Origin: an uncultured Actinomycetes bacterium | GTDB lineage: Bacteria > Actinomycetota > UBA4738 > HRBIN12 | Assembly (NCBI GenBank): GCA_963704725.1 | Contig: OY969934.1 | Location: forward strand, 1,685,138-1,749,137 | Reading direction: 5' to 3' | Length of the DNA: 64,000 bases | Part shown: one piece after another, positions 59,001 to 59,578 of the stretch | How the letters are laid out: the number at the start of each line of letters is the position of its first letter | Position numbering within the stretch: the first letter of the stretch is position 1 | Notes under the pieces: model-generated | Told to the model about the DNA's origin: nothing | The model's database searches: none | What the model saw: only the letters and a program-made list of their open reading frames with translations | Position numbers and translations under genes: made by a program

Positions 59001-59578
59001 CCCTAATGCCGCGGGTGTACGAGCGGGCCCGGGTCGCCCACCAGCGGACGTGCCCGATCGGGGAGCTGCTGGCCCGACCCGAGGACAAGCACCTCGAGTT
59101 CAAGTCCACGCTGCGGTGGGACCTGAAGACGGGGGAGAAGAGCCGTCTCGTCGAGGCGGCGTCGATCAAGACCGTCGCCGCCTTCCTGAACTCCGAGTTC
59201 GGCGGGACGCTCCTGGTCGGGGTCGGGGACGACGGGGCGGTCGCGGGCCTGGAGCCCGACTACGCCACGCTCCGCAAGGCCGGCAAGGCGGACGCGGACC
59301 TGTTCCTCCTGCACCTCAACCAGGTGCTCGAGAACGCCGTCGGGCTCGCGGCGGCCGCGAACGTCACCACCACGGTCCACCGGGTCGATGGCCACGACCT
59401 GTGCCGGGTCCACGTCGAGCCTTCGGGGCACCCCGTCGACGCCGAGGTCGCGGTCGCCGACCCGCAGGGTCAGCTCGGCAGGAAGCGCGTCTTCTACATC
59501 CGCCTCAACAACGGGACCCGGGCGATCGAGGACGAGCGGGAGCGGGAGCGCTTCGTCGCCCATCGCTGGGGCACGTAG
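56075..59578 (+). CDS. hsdR: Type I restriction enzyme R subunit fused to a C-terminal AlbA_2 / Schlafen-like domain
   Basis: 1167 aa; helicase Walker A QHSAGSGKS and DEAH box VVVDEAHSS; C-terminal ~175 aa (about 59051-59575) with EDKHLEFKSTL and GGTLLVGVGDDGAVAGLEP. Confidence 0.9.
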   Translation: MRITKEVAFEDAIEAHLLDQAGYTRGVTINYDPALAIDTAELFTFIGATQAETWEDLVQRNGGDPDVAQRRFADRLAKQIDERGTVDVLRHGVDDLGVHIRLAYFRPASGLNSDLQQKYDANRLTVVRQLHYAPDHANALDLTLFLNGLPVATAELKNPLTHQTVEHAVAQYRTDRDPRDALLGRRAIVHFAVDPDLVMMTTKLERGATRFLPFNRGGDPGATACGAGNPASPGGYATSYLWERVWERHAWLDLLSRFVHLERSVPGSKAKAAVRDATLLFPRYHQWDAVRRLEAHARAHGAGRNYLVQHSAGSGKSNTIAWLAHRLASLHDPQDRKIFEKVVIVTDRKVLDRQLQDTVYEFEHAHGVVKKVEESSKELAEALRSVEAKIVVTTLQKFPFVVDEVAALPERRYAVVVDEAHSSQTGEAAQEMKKALGGVTVETGDEGEIDPQDAVDALVEASARARGPHDNLSMFAFTATPKAKTLELFGEPPDEDGRHRPFHLYSMRQAIEEGFIVDVLEHYTTYETYFRLARAGEEDPEVPVREASKAIARYVMLHPSVVEQKAAIVVEHFRRSTRDRIGGRAKAMVVCRSRLSAVRFRLAIDAHAREHGYGDVGTLVAFSGTVTDDGVDYTEPNMNGFSESQTAERFASDEHRILVVAEKFQTGFDQPLLHTMFVDKKLEGVNAVQTLSRLNRIHPDKEDTFVLDFVNDAEQIQRAFAPYYDAAIAVPTDPNELYDAWREVDRFGVVWSEDVEALARLYFGPAATQAKLYALLDAARERFTDLDETEQEELRTWLKRFVSRYGFISQVLPMADTAMEKRYVYCRLLERVLPSAPSGSMDLGDRLAMTHLRVTRTGEHDLSLEKGGGVLRAFGEGGPGGYEDLLAPLSELIGRMNELFGADLSEADLLHLEGIGADMVANPEVQQQAAANTVENFGIEFDKRFTDAVAARMSQAEELTIRILDKPEFREEVVRALMPRVYERARVAHQRTCPIGELLARPEDKHLEFKSTLRWDLKTGEKSRLVEAASIKTVAAFLNSEFGGTLLVGVGDDGAVAGLEPDYATLRKAGKADADLFLLHLNQVLENAVGLAAAANVTTTVHRVDGHDLCRVHVEPSGHPVDAEVAVADPQGQLGRKRVFYIRLNNGTRAIEDERERERFVAHRWGT

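Follow-up and report, generated by a model that had tools for sequence, protein, structure and literature searches.

What does a Schlafen-like domain do at the end of a type I restriction subunit? This question is raised by a 64,000-nucleotide stretch of DNA from an uncultured Actinomycetes bacterium of roughly 70% GC (assembly GCA_963704725.1, contig OY969934.1, positions 1,685,138 to 1,749,137), which we refer to as the window. It carries an hsdR gene (56075 to 59578, plus strand) that forms one uninterrupted open reading frame (ORF) for a protein of 1167 amino acids, HsdR-Slfn, identical to a public protein (P0001). An earlier note, made from the sequence alone, had proposed that the last ~175 residues form an AlbA_2 or Schlafen-like domain, fused in an unusual way to a complete restriction subunit. 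Its coordinates (59051 to 59578) correspond to residues 993-1167 plus the stop codon, and the motifs it quoted, QHSAGSGKS, DEAH, EDKHLEFK and GGTLLVGVGDDG, were found where it had placed them.

The identity of the C-terminal domain (residues 993-1167; 59051 to 59575, plus strand) was established by profile and fold matches. Pfam PF04326 (SLFN_AlbA_2) matched residues 1003-1151 over profile positions 1-117 of 118, with an E value of 2.2e-14 in the whole protein and of 8.3e-16 when the C-terminal piece was searched alone (59 bits, the curated gathering cut-off being 25.3). NCBIfam and PADLOC searches of this piece returned no match, and when the domain was compared as a single sequence with PDB sequences, SLFN11 was matched at a borderline level only (E 0.13). 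A profile of 72 homologues, run against the PDB, matched only Schlafen-type chains: SLFN11 (3e-4), then SLFN12, SLFN14, SAMD9 and SLFN13/8. The fold of residues 993-1167 is an alpha+beta fold of the Schlafen C-lobe type, and comparison with known structures gave scores of 13.3 for both the SAMD9 AlbA_2 domain and DIP2311, 10.4 for pig SLFN11 and SLFN12, 10.2 for SLFN5, 9.3 for 2kyy and 8.8 for human SLFN11, the next, unrelated fold scoring 5.2. The earlier note had considered that this region might instead align to the ordinary helical domain of HsdR with no AlbA_2 match; we found that helical domain to be separate and upstream. The C-terminal 175 residues are therefore assigned, on these comparisons, as an AlbA_2/Schlafen domain with a single predicted lobe of the catalytic type.

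Does this lobe carry an active site? The Schlafen active site consists of an Ex4(E/D)xK motif plus one or two more acidic residues (PMC13056530; PMC12680541; 10.64898/2026.05.29.728809). From the translation, the conservation and the alignment with mammalian Schlafens, the predicted catalytic motif of the window domain is E1003-x4-E1008-x-K1010 (EDKHLEFK, residues 1003-1010; 59081 to 59104, plus strand), which aligns with ESQSIEFK of SLFN11 and ESTHVEFK of SLFN14. A glycine/hydrophobic core strand, GGTLLVGVGDDG (residues 1043-1054; 59201 to 59236, plus strand), recognized by translation and conservation, carries a third acidic residue, D1052. The part of this strand that reads GGTLLVGV (1043-1050) is preceded by a Schlafen-box-like AAFLN (residues 1035-1039, within V-A-A-F-L-N-S at 1034-1040), a variant of the SAFAN-like box; box and strand together align with SAFANTEEGGSLFIGV of SLFN11, and GGTLLVGVGDD with GGSLFIGVDD of the same protein, placing D1052 over the GVDD aspartate.

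We observed that E1003, E1008 and K1010 are kept in at least 98% of 112 family members and are invariant in a 46-sequence alignment. When residues were counted over 77 Slfn domains from all architectures, E1008, K1010, N1039 (the Schlafen-box position), D1062 and D1075 were each present in all 77, E1003 in 76 and D1052 in 73. G1043, G1044, G1049 and N1039 are invariant in the homologue alignments. Mean column conservation is 0.70 in the Schlafen domain and 0.61-0.77 in other parts of the protein, a pattern indicating that the domain is under purifying selection and is conserved like the rest of the protein. Mutants of the active site lose tRNA cleavage or toxicity in SLFN11, RorSlfn5 (E15A/D20A), Avs9 (D45N) and RzAgo (D32A) (PMC13056530; PMC12680541; 10.64898/2026.05.29.728809), and putative metal-binding equivalents of the downstream Avs9 residues D45 and E65 are present here among D1052, D1062 and D1075. 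Because the Schlafen acidic residues and K1010 are conserved, we predict a working active site, although conservation does not indicate its substrate. This argues for a catalytically competent Schlafen domain on HsdR. The earlier note had suggested a nucleic-acid-binding domain with a possible sensing or effector function; the invariant Ex4ExK points to a catalytic effector more than to a mere binding module.

Is the restriction subunit ahead of this domain intact? It begins with a PD-(D/E)xK nuclease domain (about residues 1-260, with D141 and E155-L-K157; 56075 to 56854, plus strand; Pfam HSDR_N 6.1e-13, over the cut-off) and continues with a superfamily 2 (SF2) translocase (about residues 280-720; 56912 to 58234, plus strand; Pfam SWI2_SNF2 1.2e-27, ResIII 1.1e-14 and T1R_D3-like 1.6e-11, with DEAD also matched). 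The body ends in an all-helical region (residues 736-992, with a disordered loop at 836-890; 58280 to 59050, plus strand), seen in the secondary structure of a full-length AlphaFold2 (AF2) model and without a match to any Pfam C-terminal family. The motor motifs are Walker A (QHSAGSGKS, 309-317, with GSGKS at 313-317), DEAH (418-421) and motif VI (QTLSRLNR, 689-696). D141, E155, K157, Walker A, DEAH, TATP and motif VI are all invariant in the 46-sequence alignment.

PADLOC's REase_I models match the protein, whereas TIGR00348 (hsdR) reached 200 bits, under its cut-off of 284.55; because of this low score we place the window protein in a divergent HsdR clade. The family profile matches EcoR124I HsdR at 8.6e-26, and the best Foldseek matches of the full-length model are structures of the same enzyme (4beb, 7bst, 2w00 and 6h2j; E ~1e-20 over ~930-980 columns). 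Like canonical EcoR124I HsdR (2w00, 6h2j, 7bst), the window protein has a nuclease, two RecA-like motor domains and a helical region, but EcoR124I HsdR ends after its helical/C-terminal region, whereas the window protein goes on for 175 residues into the Schlafen domain. By domain content, invariant motifs and the EcoR124I alignment, the HsdR body is predicted to be complete, with PD-ExK nuclease, SF2 motor and helical domain, as the earlier note had held.

Where does the restriction subunit stop and the Schlafen domain start? When 1.84 billion 50%-identity representatives were searched exhaustively with HMMER, 16,205 relatives were obtained, and only 11 of the 150 best representatives reach into the Schlafen domain. 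The nearest Schlafen-less relatives are 53% identical and typically ~975-1030 residues long, and they align no further than query residue ~985-992, as illustrated by P0244 (53% identity, 1009 residues), which aligns over query residues 4-987, P0246 (995 residues) and P0248 (997 residues). A similar end point, equivalent to residue ~982-993, is seen in plasmid-borne HsdRs of Bacillus, haloarchaea and Rhodococcus. As the Schlafen-less relatives end where the domain begins, we regard it as a discrete add-on to a full-length HsdR, and the claim that R subunits normally end before it is borne out for this HsdR family. No fused HsdR-Slfn was found among PLSDB plasmids, so the fusion is not evidenced as plasmid-borne.

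The fusion is indeed unusual among HsdRs, but it is not a singleton. In a 90%-identity database, more than 110 clusters have the same Pfam architecture, at 52-85% identity and lengths of ~1157-1213 residues. A scan of one genome per species found a relative of the Schlafen domain in at least 510 genomes, with the domain in frame and contiguous with a window-type HsdR body in 54 of the best 80 loci; genome and cluster counts are lower bounds, so at least 54 species genomes carry the fusion. The fused clusters and genomes are mostly from Actinomycetota, the fused loci mostly from Actinomycetes, Acidimicrobiia, Rubrobacteria and Nitriliruptoria, and the public names of their proteins are "RNA-binding domain-containing protein", "DEAD/DEAH box helicase family protein" and "type I restriction enzyme R subunit". 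HsdR-Slfn is an established, conserved family and not an oddity of a single genome.

Could an assembly or sequencing error have merged hsdR with a neighbouring, independent Schlafen gene? Gene-call fusions do occur nearby, as in an hsdR-sufD read-through of 1629 residues (P0016), and the hsdR of one related locus (L081) is broken by frameshifts. Against such an artefact, the uninterrupted ORF recurs throughout the clusters described above, at the same identities and lengths; dozens of independent genomes hold the helical and Schlafen parts in frame; and the linker residues Q990, C993, P994, I995, L998 and L999 are conserved. We give this explanation virtually no weight and consider it effectively refuted. 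In L081 (7372-10906 of a 4.7-Mb contig) the hsdR-Slfn homologue is spread over four or five ORFs (HSDR_N, SWI2_SNF2, T1R_D3-like, Slfn), which makes it either a pseudogene or the product of assembly indel errors. Many "short Schlafen proteins" in the databases are hsdR-Slfn fragments of this kind. We rejected a natural split form, represented by ~300-residue proteins with helical and Schlafen parts: P0137, from L081, is a piece of the frameshifted hsdR, and most others lie on contigs of 1-3 kb. A separate observation concerns an Iamiaceae locus (L035), where a 309-residue ORF (9608-10534) with a helical segment and a Schlafen domain lies in its own frame after a more divergent hsdR; this may reflect either a frameshift or a true split form.

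Which other enzymes carry this domain? Relatives at 37-45% identity sit at the C-termini of other, mostly restriction-type proteins. These include type IIG Eco57I/MmeI-like restriction-methylases of 1314-1407 residues (L056, L058 and L063) and a second, distantly related HsdR family (L071 and L073; 1278 residues), in which HSDR_N, SWI2_SNF2, T1R_D3 and a canonical T1RH-like_C precede the C-terminal Schlafen domain. They also include GmrSD_N/DUF262 proteins of ~700 residues (L054, L069 and L079), whose Schlafen domains are sisters at 41-45% identity, and a bPH_2 protein. No GmrSD C-terminal HNH nuclease was recognized in the DUF262-Slfn proteins, even at E values up to 1. Their architecture is that of EcoSlfn7 (DUF262-Slfn), which protects E. 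coli against several phages (PMC13056530). In a neighbour-joining tree, a quick distance tree without support values, the domains on the window-type HsdR family form one clade apart from the others. From these clades we conclude that the fusion arose once in the window HsdR family and independently in the second one. As a side observation, type IIG-Slfn proteins with domains 38-43% identical to that of the window were present in cyanobacteria, Armatimonadota and others (L056, L058, L063, L064, L067 and L072), and may correspond to the "direct fusions with methyltransferases" described previously (PMC13462974).

The C-terminus of the window HsdR family accepts further modules as well. Three proteins of ~1290-1308 residues (P0044, P0048 and P0078; for example L008, 3587-7513) have a minimal nucleotidyltransferase (MNT; Polbeta/NTP_transf_2) after the Schlafen domain, at about residues 1195-1281. 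HEPN RNase toxins usually have an MNT-fold partner as their antidote (PMC3710099), and for this reason the add-on may regulate the Schlafen nuclease from within the same polypeptide. Another HsdR-Slfn variant (P0267, 1329 residues) ends in a LexA/UmuD-like Peptidase_S24 domain (residues 1189-1316), which could link it to self-cleavage or SOS-type control. Schlafen-less members (P0255, P0292, P0312, P0361, P0383, P0356 and P0373) carry other extensions at the same junction, either 140-530 residues without a Pfam match or a treble-clef zinc finger (zf_Tbcl_2). The zinc finger was the only alternative domain that our scan recognized in these extensions, which may be unexplored accessory modules. 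With Schlafen, MNT, S24, zinc finger and other extensions all found there, we view the HsdR C-terminus as a docking point for accessory modules.

Does the fused subunit belong to a restriction-modification (R-M) system? In the window, hsdM (49870 to 51816, plus strand) encodes a methyltransferase subunit of 648 residues (Pfam HsdM_N 7.9e-25 and N6_Mtase 7.2e-59; PADLOC MTase_I PDLC03029 7e-278, full length). It is followed by hsdS (51813 to 53111, plus strand), whose start overlaps the hsdM stop codon and which encodes a specificity subunit of 432 residues (Pfam Methylase_S in two stretches; PADLOC Specificity_I PDLC03162 1e-110). From its gene content this is predicted to be a working type I restriction-modification locus, with hsdM, hsdS and hsdR. 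The linkage is not confined to the window: among the 27 related loci with enough upstream sequence to check, hsdM and hsdS lie directly upstream of the fused hsdR in 21, while neither is present in three.

How, then, might the two nucleases of one subunit work together? Building on the observed identity and fold of the domain, its conserved catalytic residues, the intact HsdR body, the hsdM/hsdS linkage and the recurrence on restriction enzymes, we hypothesize, with moderate confidence, that the restriction complex gates the Schlafen domain as a latent RNase, probably one that cuts tRNA, and triggers it on engaging unmodified DNA. In our model the domain would be a metal-dependent endoribonuclease, most likely acting on tRNA, that stays inactive in the resting enzyme until the state of the restriction complex turns it on, much as in PrrC-EcoprrI but in covalent form. 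One complex would thereby hold two effectors, a PD-ExK nuclease directed against foreign DNA and a Schlafen RNase that would stall translation in the infected cell. The trigger that we favour would be the engagement of unmodified DNA by the M2S-HsdR machinery, an event that would pair two single-lobe Schlafen domains and so rebuild the two-lobed active form. We infer all four elements of this model: RNase activity, tRNA substrate, latency and trigger.

Characterized systems offer precedents. All three prokaryotic Schlafen systems characterized to date, RorSlfn5, CbCash and RzAgo, are tRNases, and at least two of them are controlled by oligomeric state: CbCash passes from an inactive dodecamer to cA4-induced filaments, and RzAgo forms an ATP-dependent tetramer, in which the two-lobed arrangement of mammalian Schlafens is recreated from two single-lobe domains (PMC13056530; PMC13462974; 10.64898/2026.05.29.728809). 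A type Ic restriction enzyme, EcoprrI, holds the anticodon nuclease PrrC in a latent state (PMC3710099). Activation by unmodified DNA is favoured because four different DNA-sensing enzymes end in a module of this one Schlafen clade, and because Schlafen is apparently the sole nuclease in the DUF262 fusions. A broader proposal, which we hold as a tentative possibility and not as our expectation, is that this one clade is a portable second effector, captured C-terminally by type I HsdR (twice), by type IIG enzymes and by DUF262/GmrSD-like proteins, that would wire foreign-DNA recognition to tRNA cleavage. In the type I case, HsdR pairing on unmodified DNA would activate it, as two HsdR motors assembling or colliding there would bring their Schlafen domains together.

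Other roles for the domain have to be weighed against this model. As in PrrC-EcoprrI, a precedent for multi-pronged defence linked to R-M systems (PMC3710099), the Schlafen RNase could be silent in the intact complex and fire when an anti-restriction protein (Ocr, ArdA or the Stp peptide) disables or distorts it, acting as a back-up for failed restriction. The conserved catalytic residues would fit such a guard, as would the position of the domain at the extreme C-terminus, beside the HsdR region that assembles with the methyltransferase in EcoR124I (6h2j, 7bst), where DNA mimics act. However, domains of the same clade sit on the mechanistically unrelated type IIG and DUF262 enzymes, which have no known anti-restriction trigger in common; and in DUF262-Slfn proteins Schlafen is the only recognizable nuclease, hence the primary effector and not a back-up. 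We consider the guard unlikely and rate it below activation by unmodified DNA.

Less probable again is a role directed at DNA, in which the domain would bind or cut DNA for restriction itself: anchoring or loading HsdR, sensing ends or single-stranded regions, or providing a second strand cut that lets one HsdR make a double-strand break. It draws on the top structural neighbour, the SAMD9 AlbA_2 domain, which binds DNA (7ksp). Yet all Schlafen-type nucleases with a defined substrate, namely SLFN11, 12, 13 and 14, SAMD9, RorSlfn5, CbCash and RzAgo, cut RNA (PMC13056530; PMC13462974; PMC12680541). The window HsdR also retains an intact PD-ExK DNA nuclease, and most of its family lacks the domain, which is therefore not needed for core restriction. 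The domain might instead be a degenerate fold with a structural, dimerization or regulatory task: some mammalian Schlafens without catalytic residues have non-nuclease roles (PMC13462974), and the C-terminus of this HsdR family takes many different add-ons. The acidic set and K1010 are, by contrast, invariant or nearly so across the 112 members and the 77 domains of four architectures, which would be unexpected of a purely structural part, and we regard a non-catalytic module as very improbable.

Several points weigh against the model of a latent RNase triggered by unmodified DNA. The full-length AF2 model (predicted local distance difference test, pLDDT, 75.6; predicted template modelling score, pTM, 0.53) does not place the Schlafen domain reliably on HsdR, and the closest structural neighbour, SAMD9, was crystallized on DNA (7ksp). 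A single-lobe Schlafen domain needs a partner lobe. In cryo-electron microscopy of EcoR124I, the two HsdR subunits of R2M2S1 lie on opposite sides, which raises the question of how their domains would meet. SLFN5, moreover, is described as a DNA/RNA-binding protein. Preferring a restriction event over an anti-restriction protein as the trigger is a choice of parsimony. Finally, three Acidimicrobiia bins (L042, L047 and L048; Ca. Aldehydirespiratoraceae and Acidimicrobiaceae) have an intact fused hsdR-Slfn whose 10-kb flanks on both sides lack hsdM and hsdS. Its neighbours in L042 and L048 include AAA_14/DUF4143 ATPases, an NYN RNase-fold protein and an AAA/nSTAND3-like ATPase. In these bins hsdR-Slfn could be an orphan gene or could have partners encoded at another genomic site.

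How does the protein compare with known systems? Prokaryotic Schlafens are defence effectors with many partners, and more than half of the defence-linked homologues lie near R-M or other nuclease systems (PMC13462974; 10.64898/2026.05.29.728809). With the prokaryotic Schlafen proteins RorSlfn5 (Ig-like-Slfn) and EcoSlfn7 (DUF262-Slfn), the window protein shares PF04326, the Ex4(E/D)xK motif and the single lobe, as well as the logic of a common nuclease joined to a variable infection-sensing partner (PMC13056530). It differs from them in that the partner is a complete restriction subunit of ~990 residues that has its own DNA nuclease and ATP motor and works in a multi-subunit M2S complex, and in that the Schlafen domain is C-terminal. 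The same study counts 55 Slfn architectures in a supplementary table, and its main text names HisKinase, HTH, DUF5929, Ig-like, DUF262 and TBP-like partners but not HsdR (PMC13056530). The literature texts that we searched make no mention of an HsdR-Slfn fusion, which may be tabulated in supplementary architecture tables that lay outside this search.

Fusions to other R-M subunits have been described, in the Slfn-methyltransferase proteins of "Cluster 3" (PMC13462974) and in Schlatpase, where the fusion to a type I HsdS also includes a GHKL ATPase (10.64898/2026.05.29.728809). Like the window protein these are covalent links to an R-M subunit, but the subunit is not the R subunit. PrrC-EcoprrI resembles HsdR-Slfn in tying a translation-targeting RNase-type effector to a type I enzyme as a second line of defence; PrrC, however, is a separate protein with an ABC ATPase and a metal-independent HEPN RNase (PMC3710099), whereas in HsdR-Slfn a non-homologous Schlafen fold is fused covalently. 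Its physical association with the type I enzyme is guaranteed by this fusion. Neither HEPN (Rx4-6H) nor an ABC ATPase was matched in the window protein by Pfam, NCBIfam or the fold search, and for this reason HsdR-Slfn is no member of the PrrC/RloC group and only a functional analogy is drawn. Human SLFN11 and the other long Schlafens also join a Schlafen nuclease to a helicase-type NTPase, but their domain order is the reverse of that in the window protein, the SLFN11 helicase is of superfamily 1 type and not of the SF2 HsdR type, and mammalian Schlafens have two lobes where the window domain has the catalytic-type lobe only. The SLFN11-type and HsdR-Slfn architectures are of independent origin. 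Both halves of HsdR-Slfn are known families, and their combination into a two-nuclease type I R subunit is real, conserved and unstudied.

What surrounds the fused gene in the window? The gene hsdR is separated from hsdS by an insert of 3 kb with genes on both strands (53114 to 56078; Pfam, PADLOC PDC-S43 and PDC-S14). It holds a hypothetical gene and a small GIY-YIG-like gene, both on the minus strand, vapB, vapC (PIN), a DUF3024 gene and two small ORFs, and hsdR begins at a GTG that overlaps the TGA with which the last of these ends. Some of its genes are common to the closest relative only (L002, among 81 related loci), and the gap between hsdS and hsdR is 9-45 bp in 10 other loci and 0.4-5.9 kb in 13. 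The insert is not a conserved part of the type I system. The two small ORFs (55168-55680 and 55677-56078) show translational coupling to hsdR; we considered them as accessory components and rejected them, as they have no counterpart in the 81 related loci.

Some contents of the insert deserve mention in their own right. The VapB/VapC (PIN) toxin-antitoxin pair lies at 54016-54770, inside the type I locus, and a PIN gene occurs between hsdS and hsdR in L081 too; small toxin or defence cargo may repeatedly land at this junction. The DUF3024 protein (54805-55155) is a full-length match to the PADLOC candidate-defence family PDC-S43 (3e-22), and the small minus-strand ORF (53685-54140) weakly matches GIY-YIG_2 (E 0.0037, under the cut-off) and PDC-S14; both genes are among those common to L002 only. 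Just upstream of hsdM is a DUF222 and HNH endonuclease gene (48131-49321, minus strand), whose family is also found near L081. On the other side, a suf operon (sufD, a Rieske protein gene, sufC, sufS and sufU; 59629-60939) begins 50 bp past hsdR. The public protein P0016, recorded as a "SufD" of 1629 residues, is the hsdR-Slfn/sufD read-through, which reveals both a gene-calling artefact in public data and the preservation of this synteny.

What would a second nuclease mean for restriction? Type I restriction enzymes are textbook DNA-only defences, and the link between restriction and translation shut-off has so far run through separate proteins, such as PrrC, or through anti-restriction sensors, such as PARIS. 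A conserved family whose restriction motor subunit itself bears a Schlafen nuclease would demonstrate that one enzyme can combine DNA recognition with tRNA targeting. If the portable-effector proposal were true, restriction and an abortive-infection-like growth arrest would be one coupled reaction and not separate layers of defence. HsdR-Slfn would also offer a defined, switchable system in which to learn how a DNA-sensing ATPase activates a Schlafen nuclease. The same question of activation is posed by human SLFN11, in which single-stranded DNA binding by the helicase domain activates the tRNase. HsdR-Slfn proteins are common among Actinomycetota and Acidimicrobiia, whose phage defences have, to our knowledge, received little study. 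Strains that carry such a protein could respond to unmodified incoming DNA not only by cutting it but also by arresting growth, which bears on the genetic tractability of these organisms.

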